Origin: Candidatus Moraniibacteriota bacterium | Lineage (GTDB): Bacteria; Patescibacteriota; Minisyncoccia; Moranbacterales; UBA1568 | Assembly (NCBI GenBank): GCA_013334575.1 | Contig: JAAXXG010000003.1 | Location: forward strand, 12,699 to 76,698 | DNA: 64,000 nucleotides | Direction: 5' to 3' | Shown: piece by piece, positions 27,321 through 53,479 of the stretch | Layout: each line of letters begins with the position of its first letter | Position numbering within the stretch: the stretch's first letter is position 1 | Translations under genes and position numbers: made by a program | The notes under the pieces: model-generated | Database searches by the model: none | What the model saw: the letters and a program-made list of their open reading frames with translations, nothing else | What the model was told of the DNA's origin: nothing

Positions 27321-27322
27321 TT

Positions 27323-31941: not shown

Positions 31942-32011
31942 CCCGATTCTTGCCTTTTCGGCCCGGAGGGGTATGGTGGGGGTGTTGGTGTCTATAAAAA
32001 GGTACCTGACC
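31942..32011 (+). repeat. M1 promoter/leader repeat, copy 5
   Basis: It shares sequence with the other M1 copies. Confidence 0.6.
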
Positions 32012-32165
32012 TGCTCTGTAGAAAAGATCTTTGTAGGATTGTCATTCCGGCCTCCACCCGGGCATTCGCCGGGCAAGAGCCGGAATCTATGCCTTGGATC
32101 CCGGGTTTGACCCGGGATGACAGTACGGAAAATCTGAAACGCGGAGATGATTTCTACAGAGCATA
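32012..32165 (+). repeat. M2 MITE-like structured element, direct orientation
   Basis: Its termini are the inverted repeats CTGTAGAAA...TTTCTACAG. Internally it has two strong hairpins (ATTCCGGC...GCCGGAAT and ATCCCGGGtttgaCCCGGGAT). It is flanked by ACCTGACC on both sides. Confidence 0.6.
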
Positions 32166-32276
32166 CCTGACCCCTTTTCTGTTTTTGCGAGTCTTTCTTT
32201 TTCGACGAAACAGATTTTCGATATACAATGGAGGTATGAAGGAGGAGGATAAGCGAAATGGAAAGGATATTTCGAT

Positions 32277-33290: not shown

Positions 33291-33349
33291 CATATTTTCG
33301 GAAAACGGCGGTATTCTTCGGAGAAAACGGACGGCGTATCGTTCCCTAG

Positions 33350-34228
33350 TCAATACCTTTGCATCACTTCTTCGGGTGTCTGGTACCCGATTCCCATATG
33401 AATCCGTTCCCCGTTGTAATACGGGAGGTATTTTGAAATTGCGTTTCTGAGCTTTGAAACGGAGCGTGGAACAAAGTCCAGGCACTCCTCCTGTATCGTA
33501 CGGTTGAACCGTTCCACATGCGCCTGATCGTTCGAGCGACGTTCCCTCGAGTGCCGGTGCGATATCCCGATTCGTTTCATCGCGTGCGTGAACCCGGTCG
33601 TGAACTCGGGTCCGTTGTCTGACTGGACCAACCGTATCTCAAACGGGGCCGATTCCCGGACCCGCCTCATGAACTCGACACTCTTTTTCGCCCCGATACG
33701 ATCCGTCGCCCAGGCAAAGCTCCACCTCGAGCAGAGATCAATCGCCGTATACACATAGACCCGTTCTCCCCTGGAAGACTGGAGGTGTATCGTATCGATT
33801 TCCACGAATGCTCCCGGATATGCGGCTTCCGGACGTCTCGTGTGGTCATGGGGTCGTTTCCAGGGAGAACGCTTCTTTGTCAGATGGCACCGGTCCAAGG
33901 TCCGCTGTACGGATGAGAGGGAAACCTTCATTCCGGCAGTCGTCAATTCATGATGGACCACCTGTCCGCACCGGTCATGTTCCAATCGTTTGTCGATGAT
34001 CGCCGAGACGATGTCTCGTGACAACGCTTTCGGATGATAGTGCGGCTTCGAAGACAGGGTCGGTATCGGTCCGACGTTCCGATGTTCCGCCTGCTTGGCC
34101 CACCGGATGATGGTGGACTGGTCATATCCGAAATATCTCGCCACTTCCCGGGAACTCTTTCCCGATCTGAGCATCTTCACCGCATCCCAGCGTACCTTCG
34201 GGATATTCGGGTTCGAGGAATATGCCAT
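33350..34228 (-). CDS. IS481-family DDE transposase (HTH plus rve integrase core)
   Basis: It has an N-terminal HTH (SSREVARYFGYDQSTIIRW) and an rve core with the D, D, E triad context (VEIDTIHL, YTAIDLCSRW, DNGPEF...HAMKRIGISHR). Confidence 0.75.
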   Translation of the reverse strand: MAYSSNPNIPKVRWDAVKMLRSGKSSREVARYFGYDQSTIIRWAKQAEHRNVGPIPTLSSKPHYHPKALSRDIVSAIIDKRLEHDRCGQVVHHELTTAGMKVSLSSVQRTLDRCHLTKKRSPWKRPHDHTRRPEAAYPGAFVEIDTIHLQSSRGERVYVYTAIDLCSRWSFAWATDRIGAKKSVEFMRRVRESAPFEIRLVQSDNGPEFTTGFTHAMKRIGISHRHSRERRSNDQAHVERFNRTIQEECLDFVPRSVSKLRNAISKYLPYYNGERIHMGIGYQTPEEVMQRY

Positions 34229-34277
34229 ATCTTTGCATGAGACGGGTCAGTCTAGCAGGTGATGCAAAGGTATTGAA
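33350..34277 (-). mobile_element. IS481-family insertion sequence (~0.93 kb) with 17-18-bp terminal inverted repeats (T)CAATACCTTTGCATCAC
   Basis: The left IR at 33350-33367 is the reverse complement of the right IR at 34259-34276. It encodes a single DDE transposase. Confidence 0.7.
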
Positions 34278-34282
34278 ACATT

Positions 34283-34311
34283 ACGAGGTCTTGACAAAAA
34301 AGACTATTTAA
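34283..34311 (+). promoter_or_regulatory. Sigma70-like promoter TTGACA-N17-TAATGT directly outside the IS right end
   Basis: A consensus -35 and a good -10 face the downstream 34460 gene. A structured leader follows. Confidence 0.5.
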
Positions 34312-34459
34312 GGTAATGTCTGTAACAGAATCTTTACATGGCTTTTCATCGATGGCCCATCCTATGCGAGTATTCGTCTCCGATGGGCCATCGACGAAAA
34401 CAATACTTCTGTCGCCCATGATGGCTGGTCGACGAAATTAGCTGAGAAAGGAGCTAATC

Positions 34460-35170
34460 ATGTATACGGAAAACTGTAATTTTAAGGTGGAGCTGCTCGT
34501 TCACGGGCGGCCTATAACGGAATACCTCCTCGGTGGTGACACGTTCGTCGAGGGACGGATGGGGTCGGAGTATGAGATCCGTATCACGAACTACAGCAGC
34601 AGAAATGCGGTCGCGGTCGTCAGCGTCGACGGTCTTTCCGTCATGAACGGCAAGCCCGCTTCCAGGGACGCTTCGGGGTACGTCCTCGAGCCGTTCGGGA
34701 ATGTCATCATTCCCGGCTGGCGTCTCAATAACGAAGGCGTCGCTCATTTCAAGTTCGGCGCGCTGCCGGAATCCTATGCCGAAAAGCAGGGAATGCCGGA
34801 GAATGTCGGGGCCATCGGCGTCGTCTTCTTCTTCGAGCGCAAGGCTCCGGAATTTCTGCCGAACTTCGATCTGCGGACAAAGGGGATTCGACCGCCGGTC
34901 ATGTACTCGGCGGCTCCGGGGTCGTACAGCGCGTCCATCGGTACCGAATTCGGCAGGCGGACCGAACACCGTGTCACGAATGTCAATTTCGACCGTGAGC
35001 CGTCTCCGGCGGCGGAGCTTGTGCTCCGCTACGACGAGGCGAGCAATCTCGAGTCGCGTGGCATCAGGCTGATCGGTTCGCATGTCGGCAGGGATGCGGT
35101 CCGTGAGGCGAGTCCGTTTCCCGCCGATATCGGCTGCGTCCCTCCCAGGGGATGGCACAGGAGAAAGTAA
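34460..35170 (+). CDS. Hypothetical protein (236 aa)
   Basis: A GGAG ribosome-binding site precedes the ATG. No recognised domain. Confidence 0.45.
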   Translation: MYTENCNFKVELLVHGRPITEYLLGGDTFVEGRMGSEYEIRITNYSSRNAVAVVSVDGLSVMNGKPASRDASGYVLEPFGNVIIPGWRLNNEGVAHFKFGALPESYAEKQGMPENVGAIGVVFFFERKAPEFLPNFDLRTKGIRPPVMYSAAPGSYSASIGTEFGRRTEHRVTNVNFDREPSPAAELVLRYDEASNLESRGIRLIGSHVGRDAVREASPFPADIGCVPPRGWHRRK

Positions 35171-35245
35171 GGCGATCGAATATTGAAATATCGAAGAGCT
35201 CGCAATGCGGGCTCTTTAATTTTACCCGGTACGAAAAAAGCCGGA

Positions 35246-35304
35246 TACCTTTTCAGCTCGGAAGGGTATTATGGGGGTGTAGGCGTCTAAAAAAATACCT
35301 GACC
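35246..35304 (+). repeat. M1-like degenerate repeat, copy 6a
   Basis: It reads ATACCTTTTCAGCTCGGAAGGGTATTATGGGGGTGTAGGCGTCTAAAAAAATACCTGACC. Confidence 0.45.
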
Positions 35305-35322
35305 TCTTTTCCGCTCCCCGAC

Positions 35323-35386
35323 TCCTTGCCTTTTCGGCCCGGAGGGGTATGGTGGAGGTGACGGTCTTTGCAAAAGGAATCCAGCC
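35323..35386 (+). repeat. M1 promoter/leader repeat, copy 6b
   Basis: It reads CTCCTTGCCTTTTCGGCCCGGAGGGGTATGGTGGAGGTGACGG... Confidence 0.55.
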
Positions 35387-35461
35387 TCTCTTTTTTGGTT
35401 GCGGGTGCTGAGTATGCCGCGTCGATATTTTGACGGAGTCGCACTTCCTGGAAATATCCGT

Positions 35462-36112
35462 ATGAAACTATATCTTTCATCATACAAACTTGGGAACGAT
35501 ATCGAGGCCCTGAAAGGGCTTGTCCCCGCCGGGAACAGGAAGACGGCATTCATCCCGAACGCTCTCGATTTTTCCACTGATTCCGAACGGCGGGAGAAGA
35601 GCGAACGATCCGATGTCGAGGATTTGTCCGCGTTGGGTCTCGAGGTGGAACGATTGGATCTGAGGGACTATTTCGGCCTGCAGTCGGAACTGGAAACGAA
35701 GCTCGGTGATTTCGGCGTCATCTGGGTACGCGGCGGAAACGCGTTCGTACTTCGGAAGGCGATGAAGAAAAGCGGTTTCGATGAAATACTCCGGCGTTTC
35801 GTGGGGAAGAAGGAATTATTGTACGGGGGATATAGCGCGGGAATCTGCGTGTTGTCACCAACGTTGGAAGGGATAGACCTTGTCGACGATCCTTATGTAG
35901 ACCCGTACGGAGACCCTTCCGCGGCGTCGTTCGAAGGCCTCGGAATCGTTGACTATTCCATAGTCCCTCATTATCGGTCCGATCATCCGGAATCGGCGAG
36001 TATCGAAAAGGTCGTCGAATATCTTGAAGAAAAAGGGATCCGATATAGGACGCTCCGGGACGGGGACGTGATAATCTCGGAGGTTTCGGAGGAGTCCGCT
36101 GTGCGGGTCTGA
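35462..36112 (+). CDS. Peptidase S51 (dipeptidase E/cyanophycinase-like), paralog 1
   Basis: It has the VRGGNAFVL motif and the nucleophile context YGGYSAGICV. An upstream in-frame ATG at 35399 is an alternative start. Confidence 0.65.
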   Translation: MKLYLSSYKLGNDIEALKGLVPAGNRKTAFIPNALDFSTDSERREKSERSDVEDLSALGLEVERLDLRDYFGLQSELETKLGDFGVIWVRGGNAFVLRKAMKKSGFDEILRRFVGKKELLYGGYSAGICVLSPTLEGIDLVDDPYVDPYGDPSAASFEGLGIVDYSIVPHYRSDHPESASIEKVVEYLEEKGIRYRTLRDGDVIISEVSEESAVRV

Positions 36113-36191
36113 ATGATGGTCGGGTGCGTCTGAGCGAGGAATCCGATTTAGGAGGTGGGGAATCGTGGAGAAGCATGCCGAGAGCTGAACT

Positions 36192-37058
36192 ATGGAATAT
36201 TCGGACCTGGTACGCGACGTATTTTCGGATGGGGAGAAAAAGCGGTTCATAACCGACAGTCTTCGCGACTCGATGACCCGTCTCGGGTTCTCTGGCGCTC
36301 TGCGCGACGAATTCCTGCGAAACATCGATACGCTTACCGTTGCCGATTTTATCGGGCGACATAAAAACGAGCTCCAGCGGGTTCAGAACGAACATTTTTT
36401 CGGGGAGTTGGTGCCGGTATATTTCAAAGAGAACGTGGTTCCCGAAATACCGGCCGGGGGCAAGGTGCTTGATCTGGGATGCGGTCCCGCCATCCTGATC
36501 CGCTGTCTCATCGAACGGGGAACGAACCCGGAAATCGTCGGTTCGGATATCGCGGCCGACCCGCGCTGGAGCGGCATCGTTCCCGAAGATGCGCGGCTCG
36601 AAGTGGTACGGGAGTCCGAATTTCTTCCATATCTGAAACGGGAGCAGCCGGACCATGTCGCGGCGACGTGGGTATTCCATCACATGGAATACGCGGAGCA
36701 GGAACGATACCTGTCCGCGCTTCACAACGCCCTCAAGCCGGGGGCGACGCTTGTCGTGTTGGAAGACTCGTATTCGGAGGTCCTCCTGCCCGAGTCCGGC
36801 AGAGAGCGAGCCCTGGCGTTCATGCGGTGGAGCCCCGAGGACCGGCACAAAATCATGGGAGCGCTCGACTGGATTGCCAACCGGATTTTCAGCATGCGGA
36901 CCTCGATGCCGGTGCCGTTCGCGTATAGGACCCTGGAAGGCTGGGCAAAAGTTTTCGAGGAAGCCGGATTTTCGGTGAAAAAGACCAGATTCCTGGGATT
37001 TCCAGACAACAGGGATATACATACTCCCCAGAGCCTGATCGTCGCCGAGAAGCGATAG
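36192..37058 (+). CDS. Class I SAM-dependent methyltransferase
   Basis: Motif I is VLDLGCGPA. Post-I is VGSDIA. Motif II/III is LVVLED. Confidence 0.65.
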   Translation: MEYSDLVRDVFSDGEKKRFITDSLRDSMTRLGFSGALRDEFLRNIDTLTVADFIGRHKNELQRVQNEHFFGELVPVYFKENVVPEIPAGGKVLDLGCGPAILIRCLIERGTNPEIVGSDIAADPRWSGIVPEDARLEVVRESEFLPYLKREQPDHVAATWVFHHMEYAEQERYLSALHNALKPGATLVVLEDSYSEVLLPESGRERALAFMRWSPEDRHKIMGALDWIANRIFSMRTSMPVPFAYRTLEGWAKVFEEAGFSVKKTRFLGFPDNRDIHTPQSLIVAEKR

Positions 37059-37258
37059 CACGACGCGCCTGCCCGGCAACGGACCGGGCGTTGTATTTTT
37101 AGTATCCTTGTTATTTTTTCCTAGAGGGGATATCGTAAAAAGGAAGTAACATTAGGTGGTAATACAGCTGCAAGAAACCGTTTCGGGCCGAAAAATCAAA
37201 AGAAAATTGATCTGCTTGTCATGTACGAGCATTTGTTTGTAGTCCAATAAATATAGAA

Positions 37259-38317
37259 TTGCAAAAATATATGGCAAAAAAAAATAAAAAAATAGAAGTC
37301 GTCGATCTTTTTAGTGGAGTAGGTGGTTTAACATACGGCTTAAGAAAGTCAGGATTGTCAGTTTTGGCTGGCATTGATAACGACCAATCATGTGCATATG
37401 CATATGAGAAAAATAATAAGGCAAGGTTTTTATCTGTTGATATATCGAAGTTTGATTTTAAAGAATTGAATAAAATTTATTCGAGGAACAGTGTTCGAGT
37501 ACTTGTTGGGTGCGCTCCGTGTCAACCCTTTTCTTCTCATGCTTATAAATTACGTAAAGACGAAAGTGACGTGCGCTGGAACTTGCTCAGTCATTTTATT
37601 AGAGGAATAAAAGTCGTCAAACCGGATATTGTTTCAATGGAGAATGTTCGAGGAGTTACGAAAACTGATGTATTTAAGAACTTCGTGAGTGAACTTGAAA
37701 AACTTGGTTATAAAGTTGATTGGAAAGTTGTATATGCACCAAATTATGGTGTGCCACAAAATCGAAGCCGCCTTATTTTGCTTGCTTCAAGACTTGGTGA
37801 AATTTCTATACCAAAAGAAACTCATACAAAAGACAATTATGTTACTGTTGGCGATGTCATTCGTGAGTTGCCAAGGATTGAAGCAGGGGAAGCATCAAAG
37901 CAGGATAAATTACATCAAGCAAAGAAGCTGGAACTTATAAATGAAAGGCGTATTTTGCAATCGAAGCCTGGTGGCACTTGGCGCGATTGGGATAAGAGTT
38001 TATTGCCGAATTGCTATAAAAAAGATAGTGGACAAACGTACACATCGGTATATGGACGTATGAAGTGGGAGGACGTATCGCCGACGATTACCACGCAATT
38101 CACAAGTTACGGATCCGGGCGATTTGGACATCCTGAACAGAATCGAGCGCTTTCAATTCGTGAGGGTGCGCTTTTGCAAACATTTCCCATTGATTATGAC
38201 TTTGGAGATTTTCCGGCTGCAAAATTGAGTCGACATATTGGTAATGCAGTGCCTCCTCAGTTGGGTGTTGTAATTGGAAGGCAAATAAAGAAACACATTG
38301 AAATCTATGGAAAGTGA
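37259..38317 (+). CDS. DNA (cytosine-5)-methyltransferase (Dcm type), AT-rich gene
   Basis: Motif I is VVDLFSGVGG. Motif IV is GCAPCQPFS. Motif VI is ENV. Motif VIII is QNRSRLIL. Motif X is GNAVPP. Confidence 0.9.
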   Translation: MQKYMAKKNKKIEVVDLFSGVGGLTYGLRKSGLSVLAGIDNDQSCAYAYEKNNKARFLSVDISKFDFKELNKIYSRNSVRVLVGCAPCQPFSSHAYKLRKDESDVRWNLLSHFIRGIKVVKPDIVSMENVRGVTKTDVFKNFVSELEKLGYKVDWKVVYAPNYGVPQNRSRLILLASRLGEISIPKETHTKDNYVTVGDVIRELPRIEAGEASKQDKLHQAKKLELINERRILQSKPGGTWRDWDKSLLPNCYKKDSGQTYTSVYGRMKWEDVSPTITTQFTSYGSGRFGHPEQNRALSIREGALLQTFPIDYDFGDFPAAKLSRHIGNAVPPQLGVVIGRQIKKHIEIYGK

Positions 38318-39953
38318 AAAGTATACATTTAATATATCCCTGAGCGTTTTAAATCATCTTGGCAGAAATTTATATCGCAGCTTTGTTACGATACTTGGTG
38401 AGGGTATTTCTAATGCTTGGGACGCTGACGCGGACAGCGTTTATATTTACTACGATTCCGAAAATCAAACCTTATGCATCATGGACGATGGTGCTGGTAT
38501 GAGTTCTGAGGATTTTCAGGGTAAATTTCTACGTGTAGGCTATACAAAACGAAAAGGTTGTGGCCTAACAAGCCCTGGAGGGCGTCATTTTATTGGGCGT
38601 AAAGGGATTGGAAAGCTAGCACTTCTGTCTGCCGCTCAAACTGTAACAGTCATAACTAAGACCAAAGATGGCGAGTTTGTTTGTGGTGTTATTGATAACG
38701 GCGGATTGGACGAGGCTATTGATGAGGACACACAACAGGCTGATTATCCACTAGGTACGGTTGATCCTATCGCTTTTCTAGAGGAAAAGAATATAAGGAT
38801 TAACAAATCAGGTACCGTCGTTTGGTTTGATGGGTTGAAAGAAAAAGCAAGCCATAGTTTTGATTTTATAAAAAAATCTCTTGCTCTTTACTTTAGATTT
38901 TCATTGCAGGACTCAAATTTCAAAATATATTTTAATAATGAATTGGTCACGGTGAAAGAATTGCAAGGACTTTGTGATAGAACTCAGTTTTTATGGCAAC
39001 TCAACGATTCATTCTCTGATGATTTTATAAATCAAATGAGTCCAAAAAGAACTGATGTAATACTTGATGATCAAAAAATAACGGGGTTTATTGCATCTGT
39101 TAATGAGCCTAGAGACAGAAACATATTTGGCTCAGGAGAACGTGTTGGTATTGATGTGTTTGTGAACGGACGCATTAGAGAAGTTGATATACTAAAACAC
39201 TTTCCTCGATCACGTATCCCCGAGCAATATTTATATGGACAAGTTCATCTAAACGATTTCGACAATGACGAAGTTGACCGGTTTACAAGCAGTCGTGAAG
39301 GAATACATGTTGATGATCCTGATTTTAAAATAATTCGTGAAAAACTTGGCGAAGTAGTTAATTCCATTATTAAACAATGGGATGTTTGGCGGCTTGAATT
39401 GAGAGAAGAGGGAGATAGCGATAACGAGGAAAATCTTAAAAAAGAGCAACGATATTCAAGAAATTTATATAACCAAGTGGCCTCAAAATATGTGCCAGCG
39501 TCTGAACAAGCCGATACGGTCAGACAATGGGAACATGAGCTGGAGAAAGACGCCGAATTAAATCTTCGTTCGTATGCAGAATGCTTCATCTCTGAAAATT
39601 TGGTTAGAAGGTATTGGCAAGAGAAAGAAATTAATCCAGACCAAAACTCATCGCAAGAAGTAAGTCATTGGAGAAACTGTGAGACAAGAGACAAAAATCA
39701 GGCAAATATATCAATAGATATACGTCTTGATAACGATGACAAATACTACATTGGAATGGAGAACTTAGCGCGACAAGCAGAGGCTCCGGGAGCTGCTGGT
39801 TCTGGTAACGCTAGTTTGCCACATGATGCAAAGGCTTTTGCGCCGTTGAGAAATGCAGTTATGCACACTTCTTTACTCACAGATCAAGCAAAAAGTAGAT
39901 TAACTACAGTCCTGGATAATATAAGAGGGCGGATTAAAACTTTGCTTCAATAA
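38298..39953 (+). CDS. MORC/HATPase_c_3-type GHKL ATPase (551 aa) with C-terminal Rx4H HEPN-like motif
   Basis: The N-box reads EGISNAWDADA, G1 reads IMDDGAGMS and G2 reads GRKGIGKLA. The C-terminus has LRNAVMH (Rx4H). Its start overlaps the dcm 3' end by 20 nt. The gene is AT-rich. Confidence 0.6.
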   Translation: MKSMESEKYTFNISLSVLNHLGRNLYRSFVTILGEGISNAWDADADSVYIYYDSENQTLCIMDDGAGMSSEDFQGKFLRVGYTKRKGCGLTSPGGRHFIGRKGIGKLALLSAAQTVTVITKTKDGEFVCGVIDNGGLDEAIDEDTQQADYPLGTVDPIAFLEEKNIRINKSGTVVWFDGLKEKASHSFDFIKKSLALYFRFSLQDSNFKIYFNNELVTVKELQGLCDRTQFLWQLNDSFSDDFINQMSPKRTDVILDDQKITGFIASVNEPRDRNIFGSGERVGIDVFVNGRIREVDILKHFPRSRIPEQYLYGQVHLNDFDNDEVDRFTSSREGIHVDDPDFKIIREKLGEVVNSIIKQWDVWRLELREEGDSDNEENLKKEQRYSRNLYNQVASKYVPASEQADTVRQWEHELEKDAELNLRSYAECFISENLVRRYWQEKEINPDQNSSQEVSHWRNCETRDKNQANISIDIRLDNDDKYYIGMENLARQAEAPGAAGSGNASLPHDAKAFAPLRNAVMHTSLLTDQAKSRLTTVLDNIRGRIKTLLQ

Positions 39954-40128
39954 AGAAACTCACTCGCGTTATCAGGTCTTTGAGCGCGTGCTGTTAGGTG
40001 TTAGGGTAGGTCAGGCACAAGTAAATTAACTTGTGCGTTAGTGTAAACCGCTTTGAATGTCGGCAAGAAAATGGGTCAGTTACTCTTTCGAAGAGGATTT
40101 TTGAACCCATTGGCGGCTCGTGACCCGG

Positions 40129-40385
40129 AACGTGTTTCCTGATAGAGTGGTGAAAATACGTAGCGGGAAATAGTGATGAAGCGTATCCGGACCATCGTCC
40201 TTACCGGCGGGCCGTGCGGCGGCAAGAGCACGGTCCTGCGGGCCTTGCGCGAGGAATTCGGCGACCGGCTGGTGCCGGTGCCGGAGGCGGCGACCGTCCT
40301 CTTCGAGGGTGGTTTTCCGGTTCCCGGCCGCGATATCGAATGGAGCGAGGAGTGGCGGGAGGCCTTCCAACCGGCCGTGTTACAT
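40129..40385 (+). repeat. Copy 1 (~257 bp) of the promoter plus 5' end of the 43917 P-loop kinase gene
   Basis: It is about 95% identical to 43862-44120 and then diverges. Confidence 0.8.
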
Positions 40386-40415
40386 CTTTTCGGGGAGGAT
40401 GTTACATGTCTCTAG
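40176..40415 (+). pseudogene. Truncated N-terminal fragment (~70 codons) of the AAA_28-type P-loop kinase
   Basis: MKRIRTIVLTGGPCGGKSTVLRALREEFGDRLVPVPEAATVLFEGGFPVPGRDIEWSEEW is identical to the 43917 gene product. Unrelated sequence and a stop follow. Confidence 0.7.
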
Positions 40416-40518
40416 GGGGATATGTTACATCTTTTTTAGGCTTATATCGGTTTCTTTTGCTTTAATAAGGCATTTGTGCTACGATCTCGTTACATGATTT
40501 CAATCCTCTAGCACATCT

Positions 40519-41661
40519 ATGCGTGATAACCTGCATATCCCGAAACCCGATTTCGGGTCCAATCTCACTCGGCTGGTCGTCAAATTGGACCATCTGCGGT
40601 CACAGAACCTGTCCGGGAGCACTCCGGCGCATATCTTCTTCCAACTCAAGGAGATCTTTCACCTGCTCGAAAGCCTCGGCTCGACGCGCATAGAGGGAAA
40701 TCATACGACCTTAGCGGAGTACATCGAGACGAAGATCACCCCGGACGAACATCCGACGGAAGGGATCCGGGAGATACAGAACAACGAGGAAGTCATGGAT
40801 TTCGTCGAGAAGACCGACACGACCGGTCCGATTACGCACGCCTTCATCCGTGAAATCCAAAGCATGATCGTCCGCGACCTCTCGACAAACAGGGAGGGCG
40901 ATCATACTCCGGGACAATATCGGAACAAGAACGTCGCAATCAGTCATTCCGAGCATACGCCGCCGGACTTTGTCCGGGTCCGGGAATACATGGACGAGCT
41001 GGTCGACTTCATAAATGCTGAGAATGAACCGCAGTTCGATTTGCTGAAGACTGCGATCATGCATCATCGGTTCGCCTGGATACACCCGTTCGGAAACGGG
41101 AACGGTCGGACCGTGAGAGCGTTGACGTACGCGATGCTTATACGCCAGGGATTCAATCTGGAGAAGGGACGTCTGGTAAATCCGACCGCAGTCTTTTGTG
41201 TCGACAGGAACCGGTACTACGAGATGCTCGAGAAGGCTGATTCGGGGAATGATGCTGACGTGCTCGCATGGTGCGAATATGTCTTGGACGGACTCGATCG
41301 TGAAATCACGAAAGTGAACCGGCTTACCGATTATGCCTATCTGAAGGACGTCATCCTGAAACCCGCCATCGGGATATCTTTCGAAAGGAATTTCATCGCG
41401 GAAAAAGAGCGGAAAATTCTTCTGATAGCGGTCGATAAGCCGCTTTTTCAGGCGGGAGATATCGCTCATCTGTTCCCGGGCGTCGCGCATACCGAGGTAT
41501 CCCGATTCCTCCGCGGGATGCGGGAGAAGAAACTTATCCGGCCAATCGCGCCGAATGCCAGGAAATATTCGATGGAAATCGCAAACGGGTATCTGTTGCG
41601 AGGCATCATGAAGGCACTCGATGAGAACGACTTTCTGCCCCTGAAGGGCGAGGCGGAGTAG
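40519..41661 (+). CDS. Fic-family protein (AMPylase/Fido domain)
   Basis: It has the Fic motif HPFGNGNGRTVRAL (HxFx[DE]GNGRxxR) and a C-terminal wHTH-like region. Confidence 0.85.
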   Translation: MRDNLHIPKPDFGSNLTRLVVKLDHLRSQNLSGSTPAHIFFQLKEIFHLLESLGSTRIEGNHTTLAEYIETKITPDEHPTEGIREIQNNEEVMDFVEKTDTTGPITHAFIREIQSMIVRDLSTNREGDHTPGQYRNKNVAISHSEHTPPDFVRVREYMDELVDFINAENEPQFDLLKTAIMHHRFAWIHPFGNGNGRTVRALTYAMLIRQGFNLEKGRLVNPTAVFCVDRNRYYEMLEKADSGNDADVLAWCEYVLDGLDREITKVNRLTDYAYLKDVILKPAIGISFERNFIAEKERKILLIAVDKPLFQAGDIAHLFPGVAHTEVSRFLRGMREKKLIRPIAPNARKYSMEIANGYLLRGIMKALDENDFLPLKGEAE

Positions 41662-41741
41662 AAACCCGTAAAAGAACGACCTGGTCCGGAAAAGGTGTCA
41701 GGTGCTTTTGACTGATGTCAGATGGCCGAGGGGCGTAAACG

Positions 41742-41846
41742 CCGTGACCCGGACCGCGTTTCCTGATAGAGTGGGGAAAATACGTAGCGGGAATCGATGA
41801 AGCGTATCCGGACTATCGTCCTTACCGGCGGGCCGTGTAGAGCCCT
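41742..41846 (+). repeat. Copy 2 (~105 bp) of the kinase promoter plus first ~30 codons
   Basis: It reads CCGTGACCCGGACCGCGTTTCCTGATAGAGTGGGGAAAATACGTAGCGGGAATCGATGAAGCGTATCCGGACTATCGTCCTTACCGGCGGGCCGTG. A TAG follows. Confidence 0.8.
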
Positions 41847-41891
41847 TTATGAATAGGTGGGGGTTGATTGAGTACTTAGTAAGGTATCTTT

Positions 41892-42464
41892 ATGATGAAG
41901 TTTGATGAGCCTCCGCGCGGCGGATCTTTAGAGGAGTGCTCTAAAGAGTCGTATATGAATCCTCGTTCGGATAGGCCGAAGTACAAGGGGCGTGATAGGG
42001 AAATCGGAGAGCGAGAAGCTAAACGACGACTCGCCATTCTTCCCAAGTTGGAAAAGATTTCTCGCGACTTCTGTGCGAAGCATTCCATAGAAAATTGTCC
42101 GATTTTGATTCCAAAGGGTTCTGCCGATGTCGGCATGAGTACTCCAGAGAGTGATTTTGATGTGGCGGTTGTTGTTAGCTCGCCTCATATTTTCCTGCAG
42201 GATCCGAACGTATGGAGGCAATATGTATCTATGCTTGAGGTGGCTGCTGATGAGGACTTCCGAGTGGAGCTACATCTTATTTCTCGATCGGAATCTGGTC
42301 TCCGTTTCGGAACGGAATTTTCCAATCATATTTCAAATGCTGAGTCGGATTCCGGATTCGGGGATTTATTTAAGAAGTTTGCTGAGTTTAAGATAGGAAA
42401 GGCGGATTGTATAAAGGATAAAAATCATGGCCAAGATACGTCCGACACGAATTCGATGGGGTAG
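41892..42464 (+). CDS. Minimal nucleotidyltransferase (MNT, Pol-beta superfamily)
   Basis: It has the motif KGSADVGMSTPESDFDVAVVV (GS...[DE]xD). It is a low-GC gene. The true start may be the internal ATG at 41955. Confidence 0.65.
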   Translation: MMKFDEPPRGGSLEECSKESYMNPRSDRPKYKGRDREIGEREAKRRLAILPKLEKISRDFCAKHSIENCPILIPKGSADVGMSTPESDFDVAVVVSSPHIFLQDPNVWRQYVSMLEVAADEDFRVELHLISRSESGLRFGTEFSNHISNAESDSGFGDLFKKFAEFKIGKADCIKDKNHGQDTSDTNSMG

Positions 42465-42505
42465 TTTTGAGTCTGTGTATTTTAGGATAAACCTGTCGCG
42501 GAACC

Positions 42506-42604
42506 CGTGACCCGGACCGCGTTTCCTGATAGAGTGGGGAAAATACGTAGCGGGAATCAATGAAGCGTATCCGGACTATCGTCCTTACCGGCGGGCCGTG
42601 CGGC
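42506..42604 (+). repeat. Copy 3 (~100 bp) of the kinase promoter plus first ~30 codons
   Basis: It is a near-identical paralog of 41742-41846. Confidence 0.8.
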
Positions 42605-42691
42605 AAAAAAGGGCCGGTCACCTCTTTTGCCCGGAGTGGGATCGCGATAGTGTCGGTATCGATAAAAGTTGCATGACACTTTTCTGCAGGA

Positions 42692-43795
42692 ATGTTTTTG
42701 GAACTTATTCGATCAATTTTTATGGAAAAATTTTTTACACAAGAAGTCAATGCGACCGGAAAGAGTATTGAGAAAGGGAGCGATTTTTTTGGGAGAATCG
42801 AAGAGCACTCTCGCGCCTTTGATCGTGAGACTGCTGATACGCGCAAGCGTTCTCGGGATGAAATACGAGAGCACTGGCGTGAGACGGAATGGAAAATCGG
42901 GGATACGACAGTGCATGCCATTGGCGTGATGCATGTGCCGGAGACGTTTTTGGAGTATCGCAAAGAAATCGAGAACGCAATCAAAGAAAGCGATATTGTT
43001 GTGAATGAATTCGCTCCCGAAGCGTTGGGTTTGTATGACAAGGAATCCGTACCGCACCTGCAACGGACGGCATCCCTGTTCAATGAGCATTATAATTTGG
43101 AACAATTACGGCAGATATATTTGAAGAACGAACGAGAATGGAATACGGGCATGTTTCATCATGAGATAGAGCTTCTTACGGCGAAATATGATAAAGATAT
43201 GGCGCTTATGGATCTCAATATGACCAAGGATTGTGAAGATTTGCTTCAGGGGAGCTCTTTGTATGCTCATGCTGCGGAACAGTCTGATGAGAATGCCGCA
43301 ACGCTCAAAAAACTCGGTTTGTACGCCGGGGCGGCCGCTTCAGTTGCCGGCGCCGTGGCGCAGAAACCCATGTCACGGAGGAAATTTTTGCGGCTTGCCC
43401 TTCTCGGTACCGGAGCGACGATAGCCGGAATAACACCAAAGCTGACTGAAACCCCGCCTCAAACAGCCATTAAGAAAGAGATGTCGATGGAGGACAAGCG
43501 GGTCGGCATGGTATTGCGTGATTTGCAAATCGCCGATTCTTTGCAGCGTCTTGCGGGGCTCGGGTATAAAAATATCACGTTTATTTACGGAGTCGGTCAT
43601 CTGTCCGGAGTCGGGAAACATCTGCATAATCCGGAAGAGTTTAGAAACATGTTGGATGAAAAAAAGGAACAACTTCATGCGTGCAATTCCGACGCCTTTC
43701 GCATATACCGTCTTGCGGACGGAGAAAATACGTCGGAAAAATTCGTCGCTTCGGACAAAAAGGTTTGGAAGCGCATCTCACCTGCAAGGGTTTAA
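42692..43795 (+). CDS. TraB/GumN-family protein
   Basis: The N-terminal motif reads TTVHAIGVMHVPETF (hxhVGxxHV). The C-terminal motif reads IYGVGHLSGV. It is a low-GC gene. Confidence 0.45.
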   Translation: MFLELIRSIFMEKFFTQEVNATGKSIEKGSDFFGRIEEHSRAFDRETADTRKRSRDEIREHWRETEWKIGDTTVHAIGVMHVPETFLEYRKEIENAIKESDIVVNEFAPEALGLYDKESVPHLQRTASLFNEHYNLEQLRQIYLKNEREWNTGMFHHEIELLTAKYDKDMALMDLNMTKDCEDLLQGSSLYAHAAEQSDENAATLKKLGLYAGAAASVAGAVAQKPMSRRKFLRLALLGTGATIAGITPKLTETPPQTAIKKEMSMEDKRVGMVLRDLQIADSLQRLAGLGYKNITFIYGVGHLSGVGKHLHNPEEFRNMLDEKKEQLHACNSDAFRIYRLADGENTSEKFVASDKKVWKRISPARV

Positions 43796-43916
43796 TTTCA
43801 GAAAACGTACCTTGTACTTCTCGAATGAAGTATCAGGGTCGAATTTTCGGGAGGCAAGGAACCGTGACCCGGACCGCGTTTCCTGATAGAGTGGGGAAAA
43901 TACGTAGCGGGAATCG

Positions 43917-44549
43917 ATGAAACGTATCCGGACCATCGTCCTTACCGGCGGGCCGTGCGGCGGCAAGAGCACGGTCCTGCGGGCCTTGCGCGAGGAATTC
44001 GGCGATCGGCTGGTGCCGGTGCCGGAGGCGGCGACCGTCCTCTTCGAGGGCGGTTTTCCGGTTCCCGGCCGGGACATCGAGTGGAGCGAGGAGTGGCAGG
44101 AGGCGTTCCAACCGGCCGTGCTGGCGCTGCAGGCCGCGCTCGAACAAAGTCACGCGCTCTTGGCCGCGGACCGGGACGTGGTGCTCGTGTGCGACCGGGG
44201 CCGGCTCGACGGGGCGGCGTATACCGAGGGCGGCGTCGGGGCGTTCTGCCGGATCCACGGGCTCGACGAGACCGAGACGCACGGACGGTACGACCTGGTG
44301 ATCCATCTGGAGTCGCTTGCGACGAGCCATCCCGAACGCTACGGGACCGAGGGGAACGCCGCGCGCTACGAGTCGCTCGAACAGGCGCAGGCGCTTGAGC
44401 GCGCGACGCGGGAGGCGTGGGGGAATCATCCACGGCGGAAAATGATCGGCGGGGAGCGGGGGATGGAGGGAAAGATCGAGGATGTGGTCGCGGTCGTGCG
44501 CGAACTGCTCGGCGAGGGCTCGGAATATTCCGATAAGGGACAACGATAA
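43917..44549 (+). CDS. AAA_28/NadR-like P-loop NTPase (predicted nucleoside/nucleotide kinase), full length
   Basis: The Walker A is LTGGPCGGKST. It is 210 aa. Its promoter and 5' end exist in three further upstream copies. Confidence 0.65.
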   Translation: MKRIRTIVLTGGPCGGKSTVLRALREEFGDRLVPVPEAATVLFEGGFPVPGRDIEWSEEWQEAFQPAVLALQAALEQSHALLAADRDVVLVCDRGRLDGAAYTEGGVGAFCRIHGLDETETHGRYDLVIHLESLATSHPERYGTEGNAARYESLEQAQALERATREAWGNHPRRKMIGGERGMEGKIEDVVAVVRELLGEGSEYSDKGQR

Positions 44550-45442
44550 TGAACTGGATCGTCCTTTCGCTCATCGCACCGCTGTTCTGGGCACTGACGA
44601 GCTTTGTCGACAAATACGTCCTCGGGAAGTATTCCCGCGGGCTGGCGGATTTCGTGTTCTTCTCGTCGCTCGGAAGCTGGCTGCTCTTTTTCGCGCTGAT
44701 GCCGTTTTCCGGGATGCCGGTTCTTAGTCTTCGGCTCCTTATTCCGGTCGCGACCGGAATGATGCTCATGTATTCCTACTGGCTCTACGGCAAAGCGCTC
44801 GGGGAGGGGGATGTCTCCACGACCATCATCCTGCTGTACAAGCTGATTCCGGTGGTCACGGCGGCGCTTGCGTTCGCGTTTCTCGGGGAGAGCCTCGCTC
44901 CGAAGGAACTTCTGGGATTCGTCATCGTCCTCGCCGGGGCGACCGCCGTTTCGTTCGAGCGGGGCGGCAAACTGCTCGTCCCGGGCCTTCCCGCCATCTT
45001 CGGGGTCGTGGTCCTCTGGTCGGTCATGACGCTTCTCATCGACTACGGATTGGAGGAAATCCCGTTCTGGCAGTACCTCATGCTCGACAGTCTCGGTTCC
45101 GCGGTCGCGGGACTTTCCCTGTTTCTTGTCCCGTCGCTACGGCGGGAGATGGTGGCGGGCATCCGGAGCGCCGGCGGCGGGAAGTATGCCTGGTACGTCG
45201 GGAACAATCTCCTCGACTTCGTCGGGCAGATGAGCGTCAAGAAGGCGGTCATGCTTGCTCCGGCCGTGAGCCTGGTGACGCTCGTCATCCAGGTCCAGTC
45301 GTTCTACGGGATCGTCATCGGGGCGCTGCTGACGGTCGTGGTTCCGCAGGTGATCCGGGAGGATATCTCGCCCCGTTCCCTGGTGCGGAAGGTCATCGGC
45401 GCCGCTGTCATGTTCTCCGGCATCGTCCTTCTGGTCGGGTGA
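44549..45442 (+). CDS. EamA/DMT-superfamily transporter
   Basis: It is ten-TM with duplicated EamA-like halves. Its start overlaps the upstream stop. Confidence 0.65.
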   Translation: MNWIVLSLIAPLFWALTSFVDKYVLGKYSRGLADFVFFSSLGSWLLFFALMPFSGMPVLSLRLLIPVATGMMLMYSYWLYGKALGEGDVSTTIILLYKLIPVVTAALAFAFLGESLAPKELLGFVIVLAGATAVSFERGGKLLVPGLPAIFGVVVLWSVMTLLIDYGLEEIPFWQYLMLDSLGSAVAGLSLFLVPSLRREMVAGIRSAGGGKYAWYVGNNLLDFVGQMSVKKAVMLAPAVSLVTLVIQVQSFYGIVIGALLTVVVPQVIREDISPRSLVRKVIGAAVMFSGIVLLVG

Positions 45443-45507: not shown

Positions 45508-46896
45508 ATGAAGAACACCGCGACGAACCTGTCCTCCGCGGCTGGGAACGGAAACAGGAAGCGGCTTCCCAAGGCCGAGCGCATCGCGATCAGCCTGTAC
45601 AAGCGCACGTTGAACCGGAAGCGGTTCGGCCGGTTTCTCCGTATCCTGGGTCCGGGGCTCGTGACCGGGGCGGCAGACGACGACCCGTCGGGCATCGCGA
45701 CCTATTCGCAGGCGGGCGCCATGAACGGCTTCGGGCTCCTGTGGGCGTTCCCGCTCATGTACCCGCTTCTTCTCGGTGTACAGGAGAGCTGCTCGCGTAT
45801 CGGCGCGGTCACGGGCAAGGGGCTTGCGGCGGTCATCAAGGAATACTACGGTCGGCGCATCCTGCTGTTCGCGGTCCTGCTCGTGGTGTCGGCGAACGCG
45901 GTGAACATCGGTGCCGATCTCGGCGCGATGGCCGAGGCGACCCGGCTGTTCGTCGATCTGCCACAGATCTTCCTCGCGGTCCTGTATGCCGCGATCGTGG
46001 TGCTGCTGGTCGTTTTCGTGAACTATCGGACCTACGCCCGGATCCTCAAGTGGCTTGCGCTCTCGCTCCTGGCGTATCCGCTGACGGCATTCATGGCCGG
46101 GCTCGACTGGGCACAGGTTCTCCGGAGCACCTTCCTTTCGGTTCCGCGCCTCGACGCGGAGACCATGTACATCCTCGTCGGTATCATCGGGACCACCGTA
46201 TCGCCCTACCTGTTCTTCTGGGACACGTCCGAGGTGGTGGAAGAAGAGATCGCGAAACACAACCGGGCGTCGATCGGCCGCGATCCCAAGCCGACCGCGC
46301 GGTTTCTCCGCAATCTCCGTATCGACAACCTCGTCGGGATGACCGCCGCCAACCTGACGGCGTGGTTCATCGTCGTGGCCTGCGCCTCGACCCTTCATCT
46401 TGCCGGAGTGACCGAGATCGGCACTGCCGCCGAGGCGGCGCGCGCGCTCGAACCGATGGTCGACGGGTTCCCGCATGCGGGGCTCGTGGCCAAACTCGTC
46501 TTCTCGATCGGTATCGTCGGAACGGGGCTTCTCGCGGTTCCGGTGCTCGCGGGATCGTCGTCGTACGCGATCAGCGAGGCGTTCGGCTGGAAGGAAGGAC
46601 TGTCCCGAAAGTTCCGTAACGCCCGCGGGTTCTATGCCGTCATCGCGGTCGCGACCTTCGTCGGCCTCGCGCTCAATCTTTTCGGCGTCGACCCGATCAA
46701 GGCGCTCGTCTTCACGGCGGTCTTCAACGGTATCGCCGCGGTACCACTCCTTTTTCTTATCGTGCGGATCGGCAACGATGCCGCGATCATGGGTGACTAC
46801 CGCAACGGCCGGTGGTCCAACCTGTCCGTCCGGCTGGCGGCCGCGACCATGACCGTCGCGGTAATCGGGTTGTTCGTGTCGATGCTTGTCCGATAG
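45508..46896 (+). CDS. mntH: NRAMP-family divalent metal (Mn2+/Fe2+) transporter
   Basis: GPGLVTGAADDDPSGIATYSQAGA resembles the NRAMP TM1 metal-binding DPGN region. It is about eleven-TM. Confidence 0.7.
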   Translation: MKNTATNLSSAAGNGNRKRLPKAERIAISLYKRTLNRKRFGRFLRILGPGLVTGAADDDPSGIATYSQAGAMNGFGLLWAFPLMYPLLLGVQESCSRIGAVTGKGLAAVIKEYYGRRILLFAVLLVVSANAVNIGADLGAMAEATRLFVDLPQIFLAVLYAAIVVLLVVFVNYRTYARILKWLALSLLAYPLTAFMAGLDWAQVLRSTFLSVPRLDAETMYILVGIIGTTVSPYLFFWDTSEVVEEEIAKHNRASIGRDPKPTARFLRNLRIDNLVGMTAANLTAWFIVVACASTLHLAGVTEIGTAAEAARALEPMVDGFPHAGLVAKLVFSIGIVGTGLLAVPVLAGSSSYAISEAFGWKEGLSRKFRNARGFYAVIAVATFVGLALNLFGVDPIKALVFTAVFNGIAAVPLLFLIVRIGNDAAIMGDYRNGRWSNLSVRLAAATMTVAVIGLFVSMLVR

Positions 46897-46909
46897 CGTT
46901 CAGATATAT

Positions 46910-47446
46910 ATGAAGACCGAATTCGAAGGGCGGATACTCGGAGTCGATCCGGAAGCACTCGTGCGGATACTCGAGGAGCTCGGGGCCGAGAAGGTCGGCG
47001 AGTACCTGTATCGGCGCCATATCTACGACCTCGAACCGGGAAAAGACGAGGCGTGGATCCGACTCCGGACCGACGGCCAGACGACGACTCTGACCATCAA
47101 GGAACGCGAGCGGGACGCCGTGGACGGGATGAAGGAACTTGAATTTCCGGTCGGCGACTTCGACACAGCGCATCTTTTCGTCGAACGTCTCGGACGGCCG
47201 GCACGATGGAAACAGGAAAACCGGCGGATCCGTTACGTGCTCGATGGGATCGAGATCGATATCGACTCATGGCCGCTCATCCCGCCGTATCTCGAGGTGG
47301 AGGGGGATTCCGTGGAGGCTGTCGAACGGATGATCGAGCGGTTGGGATTTTCGCTTTCCGATATGGTCACGTTCGGGACCAAGGCTATCTATGAGAACTA
47401 CGGCATCGACCTGCATGCGATTCCGGATTTGCGGTTCGAGGAATGA
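46910..47446 (+). CDS. CYTH-domain protein (class IV adenylate cyclase/triphosphate tunnel metalloenzyme), paralog 1
   Basis: The N-terminal ExExK-type motif reads MKTEFEGRIL. IEIDIDSWP...YLEVEG is the C-terminal CyaB-like region. An upstream ATG at 46886 is an alternative start. Confidence 0.6.
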   Translation: MKTEFEGRILGVDPEALVRILEELGAEKVGEYLYRRHIYDLEPGKDEAWIRLRTDGQTTTLTIKERERDAVDGMKELEFPVGDFDTAHLFVERLGRPARWKQENRRIRYVLDGIEIDIDSWPLIPPYLEVEGDSVEAVERMIERLGFSLSDMVTFGTKAIYENYGIDLHAIPDLRFEE

Positions 47447-49211: not shown

Positions 49212-49712
49212 ATGGCGACACAGGAGAATCTGATGGCGGCGTTCGCCGGCGAAAGTCAGGCGAATCGCAAGTACCTCGCGTTCGCGAAGAAGGCGGCGGC
49301 CGAGGGGTATCCGGCGGTAGCGAAACTTTTCCGCGCGGCAGCCGAAGCCGAGACGGTGCACGCGCACGCACATTTCGCCGCGGCCGGCGGCGTGCAGGAT
49401 ACCGTCGCGAATCTCGAGGCGGCGATCGCAGGGGAGCAGTACGAGTTTACGGATATGTATCCGGGCTTTATCGCCGAGGCCGAGAAGGAGGGTCATGCGG
49501 CTGCACTCAAGTCTTTCAGGAACGCCGACGCGGTCGAGCACGAGCACTACGAACTCTATCGGCTGGCGCTCGAGGCGATCAAAGCCGGGCATGATGTCGA
49601 GGACCTTGCGATCTATGTCTGTCCGGTCTGTGGGCACACCGAGGTCGGCGTCCGGTCGGAGAAGTGTCCGATCTGCGGCGTCCCGGGAAGCACGTTCATC
49701 GAGGTGAAATAA
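49212..49712 (+). CDS. rbr: Rubrerythrin
   Basis: It has a ferritin-like diiron domain with ExxH motifs and a C-terminal rubredoxin-like CPVCG...CPICG. Confidence 0.85.
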   Translation: MATQENLMAAFAGESQANRKYLAFAKKAAAEGYPAVAKLFRAAAEAETVHAHAHFAAAGGVQDTVANLEAAIAGEQYEFTDMYPGFIAEAEKEGHAAALKSFRNADAVEHEHYELYRLALEAIKAGHDVEDLAIYVCPVCGHTEVGVRSEKCPICGVPGSTFIEVK

Positions 49713-49727
49713 TTGAACGCTTGAAAC

Positions 49728-49752
49728 GGAAAGCGGCCCTCGGGCCGTTTTC
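49728..49752 (+). terminator. Terminator AAGCGGCCC-tc-GGGCCGTTTT
   Basis: A GC stem with a T-run. It is duplicated at about 52227-52251. Confidence 0.55.
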
Positions 49753-49833
49753 TTTCGATACGTCCTTGTTTTCGGCGCTTTACACCTTTCGGGCGATGCG
49801 GGAAAATGAACGTGAGTAATCGTGGTGAACGAT

Positions 49834-52171: not shown

Positions 52172-52251
52172 CGGGGCGTCCCCGGCAACACGTTCATCGA
52201 GGTGAAATAATTGAACGCTTGAAACGGAAAGCGGCCCTCGGGCCGTTTTTC
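52172..52251 (+). repeat. Duplicate of the rubrerythrin 3' end plus terminator (~80 bp)
   Basis: CACGTTCATCGAGGTGAAATAATTGAACGCTTGAAACGGAAAGCGGCCCTCGGGCCGTTTT is identical to 49691-49752. Confidence 0.8.
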
Positions 52252-53462: not shown

Positions 53463-53479
53463 CTAAAAAGTACCTGACC
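53463..53479 (+). repeat. Truncated M1 tail (CTAAAAAGTACCTGACC) preceding an M2 element
   Basis: It shares the M1 3' motif. Confidence 0.4.

Follow-up and report, generated by a model that had tools for sequence, protein, structure and literature searches.

Introduction

How bacteria of the Candidate Phyla Radiation (CPR) gain new genes is poorly understood, because their genomes are tiny and contain few recognisable mobile elements. A locus in a metagenome-assembled genome of Candidatus Moranbacteria puts this question in a concrete form. In a 64,000-nt stretch of contig JAAXXG010000003.1 (assembly GCA_013334575.1), referred to here as the window, the 5′ flank and first codons of a gene for an AAA_28 P-loop kinase or ATPase occur as four direct repeats within an array at 40119-44549, and exactly one open reading frame (ORF) lies between each pair of consecutive copies. 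What could place single genes, one after another, in front of a kinase gene that is itself left intact? A preliminary description of the array, made from the sequence, favoured repeated site-specific integration of circular elements that each brought a replacement 5′ end, and named homologous recombination as the alternative driver of cassette capture.

The locus is a genuine gene-capture hotspot, the content of which varies between related genomes. The array is tentatively read here, with a probability of roughly 45%, as a series of Campbell-type insertion-duplications made by homologous recombination at the 5′ end of a circulating promoter-kinase module.

Results

The repeat array and its cargo

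Four copies of the kinase 5′ end had been claimed, and both the alignment and the count of a 36-nt repeat core (four matches in 64 kb, with none expected from 100 shuffles) agree with this; a single ORF lies between neighbouring copies. With boundaries refined by aligning the four copies relative to copy 4, the array reads as follows.

40062-40118, + strand: U, the native upstream segment, adjoining only the leftmost copy, with a motif of the type AAAAGGGT..GGTAAC..TTTT
40119-40379, + strand: copy 1, 261 nt, 94% identical to copy 4; putative promoter, 5′ untranslated region (5′UTR) and 68 kinase codons
40378-40434, + strand: left end of the Fic cassette, with three direct repeats of (A/G)TGTTACAT(C/G)T spaced by about 22 nt
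40519-41661, + strand: cargo 1, Fic-domain protein (Pfam Fic, 1.5e-18; PADLOC SoFic, 7.9e-49, residues 43-350)
41687-41742, + strand: U′, right end of the Fic cassette; a copy of U, recognised by alignment, that has diverged
41743-41837, + strand: copy 2, 95 nt; putative promoter, 5′UTR and about 14 kinase codons; short ORF at 41797-41856
41892-42464, + strand: cargo 2, a 190-aa ORFan labelled MNT, with the G-S...D-x-D nucleotidyltransferase-like motif KGSADVGMSTPESDFDVAV
42449-42505, + strand: U″, right end of the MNT cassette; a copy of U, recognised by alignment, that has diverged and overlaps the last codons of the cargo 2 ORF
42506-42604, + strand: copy 3, 99 nt; putative promoter, 5′UTR and 15 kinase codons; short ORF at 42560-42676
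42692-43795, + strand: cargo 3, TraB/GumN-like (Pfam TraB_PrgY_gumN, 6e-4; NCBI name TraB/GumN)
43800-43862, + strand: U‴, right end of the TraB cassette; a copy of U, recognised by alignment, that has diverged
43863-44549, + strand: copy 4; putative promoter and 5′UTR at 43863-43916, then the intact kinase gene at 43917-44549 (AAA_28, Pfam 9.1e-23)

Past the kinase codons, copies 1 to 3 run into unrelated sequence and then a stop codon. The earlier figure of about 30 codons each for copies 2 and 3 was too high, as 14-15 codons in each derive from the kinase. The ORF of copy 1 (40176-40415) encodes a 79-aa product that still matches AAA_28 (3.6e-10); it is the displaced 5′ end of the kinase gene, and many assemblies carry an annotation of this truncated gene. 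Every copy has its own single-nucleotide polymorphisms (SNPs) and unique flanks on both sides, and all four have the left edge CGTGACCC in common. The promoter of the repeat is a candidate one, with GTGACC as the possible -35 element, a 17-nt spacer and the extended -10 element TGATAGAGT; its score of 8/12 is under the threshold of the simple scan, which left it unflagged. A riboswitch or other known RNA in the repeat was rejected after an Rfam search of the window returned only six tRNAs.

The cassette units are compact (0.76-1.6 kb, one gene each), with a gap of at most 25 nt from the stop codon to the following U-like segment. Their cargo has a G+C content of 45-55%, compared with 64-71% in the kinase gene and about 58-66% in the downstream host DNA. 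The cargo had been called typical of defence or toxin islands, which holds for the Fic gene and not for the other two. The SoFic profile covers most of the length of cargo 1, which is therefore a candidate SoFic-like single-gene defence system. The TGTTACAT repeats in front of it occur only here in the window, in a single orientation, and are kept in two related loci (L001 and L005); they are probably the operator or regulatory region of the Fic gene itself, and their single orientation ruled them out as the end of a Tn7-like transposon. For cargo 2, no match was found in Pfam, PADLOC or by sequence in the PDB, and its sole match among 5.8 billion proteins was itself. The putative assignment as a nucleotidyltransferase comes from the motif, and the motif together with a helix-strand-strand-helix-strand pattern is consistent with a Pol-beta nucleotidyltransferase fold; the AlphaFold2 model was poor (mean predicted local distance difference test score of 48), too poor for a structure search. 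Cargo 3 is at best a distant TraB/PrgY/GumN relative, its 20.1 bits being below the Pfam gathering cutoff of 26.8, although some of its homologues carry a precomputed PF01963 match. The nearest non-self homologue is 60% identical and the others lower, and the genes around these homologues are housekeeping genes of ordinary CPR chromosomes. They were rejected as a donor context for the TraB-like gene, as none is adjacent to any kinase.

A diverged upstream segment closes every cassette

The preliminary description had overlooked a diverged copy of U, about 55 nt long, at the end of every cassette. The 55-60 nt 5′ of each repeat copy align with each other and with the native U of relatives, and the U-like segments have a common motif (GAAAAG...CTTTT) and a common tail (cctgtcg...gg.ac). 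A cassette is therefore laid out as a leader, a single gene, a U-like segment and then the promoter with the 5′ codons, and because each cassette ends in a diverged U copy the repeat unit is U plus the putative promoter plus the 5′ coding sequence. U itself aligns with the segment 5′ of the promoter in two empty-site loci (L014 and L015) and in L001. It also contains, inverted on the minus strand at 40074-40088, a motif like the AAAAGGTACCTGACC element of the D1 repeats described at the end.

The diverged segments are about 50-60% identical, compared with 94-98% for the repeat stubs. U diverges fast even among orthologous loci, and since the flanks of the copies are themselves diverged U copies, the sharp left edge is a conservation boundary and not a joint; it was ruled out as a recombination joint on these grounds. 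The native U and the native-type promoter variants, identical to those of the empty site in L014, are found at the leftmost copy only, whereas the gene-proximal copies have other promoter variants. This is the arrangement that a target-carrying circle would leave after one crossover, and the topology is the one expected if circles with a replacement 5′ end were integrated, as proposed earlier.

Cassette junctions coincide with GGCCGTG

In the 687-nt module there are just two GGCCGTG heptamers, and a cassette junction falls at each of them. Copy 2 ends exactly past the first of them and copy 1 past the second, while copy 3 ends 4 nt past the first. The probability of at least two exact GGCCGTG junctions by chance is 3.5e-5 over the whole gene and 1.7e-4 over the first 320 nt. 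If there is a crossover core, two positions in the gene are used, copy 3 is off by 4 nt and the junction in the related locus L011 differs. A Chi-like stop signal at GGCCGTG was also considered and fails, because elsewhere the heptamer is neither enriched nor strand-biased (two matches on the plus and three on the minus strand in 60 kb outside the array, with 1.9 expected).

Occupancy of the site in related genomes

Relatives were collected as close kinase matches in GTDB genomes and in a large protein collection, and their contigs were then compared; all of these loci are from metagenome assemblies. The site is empty, with a single U-promoter-kinase unit, in L014 and L015 and in the more distant L006. 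It holds the Fic cassette only (copy 1, Fic, kinase) in L001, L005, L007-L010 and others, which together make at least 12 independent contigs, and Fic, MNT and TraB together in the present contig only. In a fourth lineage (L011-L013) a partial U-promoter copy is followed by a 335-aa gene and then by U-promoter-kinase; in L011 the junction is elsewhere, in the 5′UTR at about q100, and has no GGCCGTG. The content of the site therefore varies between relatives, and the four copies are not shared among them, so that the condition under which the preliminary description would have been refuted does not apply. Two full-length kinase copies were seen in no relative examined, and no partial kinase duplicates were found at the more distant loci L002, L003 and L006. 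The genes that abut U differ by lineage as well: a Hachiman-like pair in L014, a helicase-PLD and SMC-like pair in L015, a restriction-modification pair in the window and L005, a 151-aa Fic gene in L016 and the 335-aa gene in L011.

Four further contigs from three assemblies (L017:1-115, L018:1-121, L019:1-128 and L022:1-95) end 40-70 nt 5′ of the repeat, inside or just before U, one of them with a remnant of the Nextera adapter. This suggests that the assembly graph branches at U in those populations as well.

The module itself (43863-44517) is 90-95% identical between lineages, whereas the neighbouring Nramp, Pyr_redox, patatin and APH genes are 72-80% identical; it is therefore the one stretch of good homology for exchange across lineages. 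As judged from these sequence comparisons, the promoter-kinase module probably circulates horizontally among related Moranbacteria lineages. The genes 3′ of the kinase vary by lineage (two unrelated EamA types, a KTI12-like gene, a photolyase and an unknown gene). Between lineages, copy 1 has 12 synonymous and 2 non-synonymous codon differences, a pattern for which the calculated probability under neutral decay is about 1e-5; either functional alleles have converted the fragment or selection has acted on it, as this figure suggests. The kinase itself is dispensable, and in some lineages it is decaying. In L011-L013 (L011:10001-10614) a frameshift has split it into ORFs of 127 and 77 aa, and in L016 (L016:8289-8889) a 73-nt deletion (q112-184) has removed the start codon and the P-loop, with a loss of about the first 23 codons. 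Unrelated Fic/Doc-type genes of 228 and 151 aa lie upstream of these decaying kinases.

Cassette exchange in a nearly identical strain

The closest comparison is with L005, which has no difference from the window over the 9.2 kb at 31797-41000 and lacks the MNT and TraB cassettes. There are 36 differences in 41500-41837 and 52 in 43863-44613, beyond which the two are nearly identical again. L005 is of the window type to 41415, of the L007 type from 41445 to about 41756 and of the window type again from 41787, so that the right end of the L007-type tract falls at 41756-41787, inside copy 2. Accordingly, the 5′ end of its Fic gene is 100% window-type and the 3′ end is 98.5% identical to L007. 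Its kinase is a patchwork of types, and the insertion/deletion (indel) and SNP patterns of the copies differ among L001, L005 and the window. Because the tract has an endpoint in the repeat and the strains are otherwise identical, the cassettes were gained or lost within a homologous-recombination tract. The exchange that is actually visible here is ordinary homologous recombination and not the work of a dedicated integrase. A second small indel polymorphism lies near the array: a CYTH-domain gene (46886-47446) is missing from the otherwise 99%-identical L005 and present in more distant relatives.

Searches for a recombinase, folded sites and free elements

The window had been described as free of any integrase, and this holds for all the large ORFs that were scanned. 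Pfam scans of these ORFs gave no tyrosine or serine recombinase, no Phage_integrase-family match, such as an integron intI would give, was found anywhere in the window, and the gene tables of 12 related loci (±10 kb) contain no integrase or resolvase. The only recombinase-like gene of the window is 6 kb from the array.

33350-34228, - strand: rve-family DDE insertion sequence (IS) transposase

The ends of the cassettes give no more support to a dedicated system. Comparison of left and right ends for terminal inverted repeats gave no score above shuffles, by which transposon ends were ruled out, and the duplications of 95-261 nt are unlike the transposon target-site duplications of a few bp. 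There is no shared motif in the cargo-side arms of the three cassettes, and no dyad symmetry was seen around the junction on inspection of the sequence. DNA folding of the 95-148-nt units gave z-scores of -0.32 to +1.03, near zero, which ruled out an attC-like folded site in the repeat. The array is therefore neither an integron nor a transposon (DDE, Tn7-like, IS200/IS605 or IS91), and the word site-specific in the preliminary description is not upheld, as neither the window nor the 12 loci have an integrase and the cargo-side junctions have no common motif. No free element with the site was found in viral contigs (two exact-core scans), JGI metagenome contigs (exact-core scan), or phages and plasmids (blastn); L004 is an unrelated P-loop kinase.

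Discussion

Proposed insertion-duplication at the kinase module

Under the insertion-duplication reading, a small circle with a neighbour gene, U, the promoter and a 5′ fragment of the kinase gene would enter the resident module by a single Campbell-type crossover. The resident 5′ end would be displaced leftward and truncated where the homology of the circle stopped, and the kinase would be left intact behind the imported promoter copy. Such circles could come from donor genomes in which the cargo is the immediate upstream neighbour of the module, or from recombination between two repeat copies of an existing array. Donors of this kind are plausible because many lineages have a different gene abutting U, and the diverged U-like segment of each cassette fits cargo that once lay directly upstream of a U-promoter-kinase unit. 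The repeats could then act as portable homology, through which strains would gain, lose and exchange cassettes and the repeats would become homogenised, while the cargo-specific U-like segments would never be a recombination substrate and would remain diverged. The 94-98% likeness of the repeats next to cargo-specific U-like segments can be explained by recombination between repeat copies that releases and reinserts cassettes.

The crossover would be made by general homologous recombination on DNA acquired by transformation, and not by a cassette-encoded integrase. One gene of the window bears on this route of DNA entry.

9029-10123, - strand: DprA (PF02481, 4.2e-74), adjoining topoisomerase I

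DprA is the transformation-specific RecA loader and a recombination mediator of natural transformation. The circular intermediate, the dependence on RecA and DprA and the order of insertion are steps that we infer. Several hallmarks of insertion-duplication are present: the insert is bracketed by a direct duplication of the target, the outer flanks are native, and there is a recombination endpoint inside the homologous segment together with mosaic alleles. In the laboratory, recircularised, partly degraded DNA with one-sided homology was integrated by single crossover, giving partial target duplications of 109-950 bp (PMC3240628), and transformation is known to create duplications and merodiploids (PMC3784515). 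Of the two routes named in the preliminary description, capture driven by homologous recombination fits better in view of the L005 mosaic, while the GGCCGTG joints keep a sequence-specific step alive.

Several points weigh against this account. The GGCCGTG junctions are the chief argument for a sequence-directed cut or crossover, since degradation and recircularisation at random should give junctions at random positions. Neither a donor genome in which MNT or TraB adjoins the module nor another assembly with these two cassettes was found, and the viral, metagenome, phage and plasmid collections hold no copy of a free circular form. DprA is the only gene from which we infer competence of the organism. 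The L005 mosaic shows the exchange of cassettes and not their first making, and the evidence consists of metagenome assemblies throughout.

Other explanations of the array

The chief rival, which is the view first put forward, is that integrase-less satellites, comparable to cis-mobilisable elements, were inserted serially by a site-specific recombinase encoded elsewhere. With a core at or near GGCCGTG, the attP site of each satellite would bring U, the promoter and the 5′ codons and thereby restore the gene, as a mirror image of the islands at tRNA 3′ ends. This would explain why junctions fall at both of the GGCCGTG sites in the module and there are no others, and the blocks of identity that run from promoter to junction match the strategy of an attP-borne gene fragment known from integrative elements in coding sequences (PMC7192596). 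The cassettes are compact, with one gene and at most 25 nt from stop codon to U-like segment, and repeated integration is known to yield tandem arrays (PMC7192596). However, no tyrosine or serine recombinase is present in the 64-kb window or within ±10 kb of the 12 loci, the three cargo-side arms are without a motif and the junction without dyad symmetry, and the L011 junction lies elsewhere (about q100, in the 5′UTR) without GGCCGTG. Moreover, the only gain or loss that could be dissected is a homologous-recombination tract, and no attP-bearing element was found in the collections searched. We consider this explanation unlikely, though it deserves to be kept in mind. A further proposal is that the locus is an integron-like capture platform of these CPR bacteria without an integron integrase, where an activity that cuts or crosses over at GGCCGTG would place each gene behind a fresh promoter copy and a short leader ORF, and with the D1 repeats described below as a sister platform. 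This is improbable. If it were true, promoter-repeat cassettes would be a general way for reduced, integrase-poor genomes to gain genes.

The array could also be the remnant of ancient tandem kinase paralogues, the bodies of which were replaced by foreign genes while the stubs were kept by selection and gene conversion. A tandem duplication that included U would leave a U-like segment before every copy, as observed, a truncated copy has kept a nearly unchanged amino-acid sequence, and the kinase is dispensable and decaying (the frameshift in L011 and the deletion in L016). On the other hand, three independent replacements would be needed, each exactly up to the next U, and the GGCCGTG junctions would be unaccounted for; no relative has two full-length kinases, the distant kinase loci have no partial duplicates, and the U-like segments are about 50-60% identical when the stubs are 94-98% identical. 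Paralogue decay is therefore quite improbable. It is very improbable that the MNT and TraB part is an assembly artefact, in which coexisting single-cassette alleles were threaded serially through the 95-99-nt repeat. MNT and TraB are found in this one contig only, and four other contigs from three assemblies break about 40-70 nt 5′ of the repeat, as a tangled graph would produce. Yet a typical read is longer than the repeats, each copy can be told apart by SNPs of its own and by unique sequence on either side, and the Fic cassette with its 261-nt repeat recurs in at least 12 independent assemblies; even with a wrong order, each cassette would be flanked by repeats in some genome. The least probable explanation, with only a very slight chance of being correct, is promoter capture, by which a tandem duplication fused the kinase promoter and 5′ end before a second copy of a promoter-less gene acquired upstream of the kinase and the first copy was then lost. 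Every cargo gene does lie behind a promoter copy, and duplications that activate transferred genes have been described (PMC11111574). Promoter capture predicts an identical U and duplicated cargo at birth, but the U-like segments are strongly diverged, no cargo is duplicated, and the Fic gene has upstream regulatory repeats and a promoter-like region of its own.

Comparison with known systems

Integron arrays resemble the locus in their compact single-gene cassettes, which have one orientation, are separated by repeats and lie next to a platform promoter. In contrast to integrons, the array has no IntI, attI, attC or GTTRRRY core and its repeat has a folding z-score of about zero, and each cassette receives its own promoter copy, whereas integron cassettes share Pc. 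In complex class 1 integrons with ISCR1, partial duplications of the 3′ conserved segment, truncated at variable points, lie on both sides of the cargo and are explained by a circle that integrates through homologous recombination. The array differs from these in having no ISCR or HUH transposase and in that the duplicated part is the promoter and 5′ end of a gene.

The cis-mobilisable elements (CIMEs) of streptococci are integrase-less DNA with att-type direct repeats, found in tandem at a gene end and thought to be mobilised in trans; they are deletion derivatives of integrative and conjugative elements (ICEs) and adjoin a resident ICE with its integrase. The array likewise consists of integrase-less units bounded by direct repeats in tandem at a gene end, but no ICE, integrase or remnant of either was found at it, and its cassettes look compact and not decayed.

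In tandem integrative elements as mapped by Islander and TIGER, direct repeats of a gene end flank the inserts, the target gene stays intact, and serial inserts form an array with the displaced native fragment at the far end (PMC7192596), all of which is also seen here. However, the array duplicates the 5′ end and promoter and not the 3′ end, its units, of 0.76-1.6 kb, each have a single gene and lack an integrase, where TIGER and Islander set a minimum of one int gene and 2 kb per unit, and the exchange observed in it is homologous recombination. As the defining recombinase was looked for and not found, the array is not a member of the integrase-based families. Laboratory insertion-duplication (PMC3240628) is alike in that a partial duplication brackets the foreign DNA (109-950 bp there, 95-261 bp here) and needs host recombination functions only; it used plasmid constructs, with junctions not reported to be sequence-specific, whereas the array is natural, multi-unit and polymorphic. 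Defence-island hotspots share with the locus the variable defence genes, here in the slot upstream of the module, the SoFic-like Fic gene and exchange by homologous recombination, but in ordinary defence hotspots an insert does not bring with it a duplicate of part of the flanking gene. What sets the locus apart is that single-gene cassettes without an integrase form a natural, polymorphic array at the 5′ end of a gene in a CPR bacterium.

A module shared at about 90-95% by lineages that are otherwise about 25% diverged serves as a landing pad for single foreign genes, where each gene receives a promoter copy and recombination lets strains exchange what the site contains. A sequence-specific activity at the joints would make this a new kind of cassette system; with joints made by host recombination, it would be a natural case of insertion-duplication that builds an array of defence or accessory genes. 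The mechanism may be ordinary recombination, and the locus would still be real, with the GGCCGTG joints as its one unexplained feature. Island finders that depend on an integrase will miss such hotspots.

The surrounding island and other observations

The window also has another family of repeats, D1, promoter-like elements of 63-90 nt composed of CTTGCC, 17 nt, TATGGT and GGAGGTG followed by AAAAGGTACCTGACC, a motif with nine matches where 0.7 are expected. All seven copies in the window stand in front of a gene, within the 15 kb that separate the tRNA-Ser site from the kinase array. In relatives, D1 precedes the Hachiman-like pair, the helicase-PLD and SMC-like pair and the 228-aa Fic gene.

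25161-25223, + strand: D1
27258-27320, + strand: D1
28975-29037, + strand: D1
30862-30924, + strand: D1
31949-32011, + strand: D1
35244-35306, + strand: D1
35325-35387, + strand: D1
L014:6548-6615: D1 in a relative
L015:1281-1365 and 3545-3610: D1 in a relative
L011:7137-7235: D1 in a relative

In L001 and L007-L010 the gene for tRNA-Ser(GCT) lies about 110 nt 5′ of copy 1 (L001:394-594), while in the window about 15 kb are inserted between the downstream flank of tRNA-Ser (24982-25140) and U. A diverged second copy of this flank is present at about 30280-30345 of the window, and L015:9830-9943 has a remnant of the tRNA 3′ end plus flank directly before U. These copies look like att-type scars of tRNA-Ser islands.

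The slot between a Methyltransf_23 gene (36192-37058) and U holds a different defence-type system in each strain type. In the window and L005 (37259-39953) it contains a type II m5C methyltransferase and a GHKL-ATPase protein that matches REase_II profiles, with a G+C content of 34-44%; in L014 (6682-9812), HamA and a DEAD helicase, which are Hachiman-like; and in L015 (3706-9696), a helicase-PLD protein and an SMC/AAA_15 ATPase.

A segment of about 145 nt at 27308-27452 recurs at 32034-32178 (inverted, 86%) and at 53502-53631, the last two being part of a direct pair, 31997-32184 and 53465-53652, that is 90% identical. It lies just 3′ of two D1 copies, in opposite orientations at two loci and direct at the third, and may be an invertible or palindromic module. 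The 3′ half of the tRNA-Ala(TGC) gene (10484-10558) is duplicated directly downstream (10525-10579 and 10584-10638, 82%), which looks like an att-type scar. A 75-nt repeat at 49677-49751 and 52175-52249 (96%), ending in a GC-rich hairpin and a T-run, brackets an ABC-transporter gene (49822-52158). Finally, an AAA_15/AAA_21 ATPase encoded at 59309-60568 (+ strand) matches defence profiles of the HEC-01A, AriA, PtuA and GajA type.

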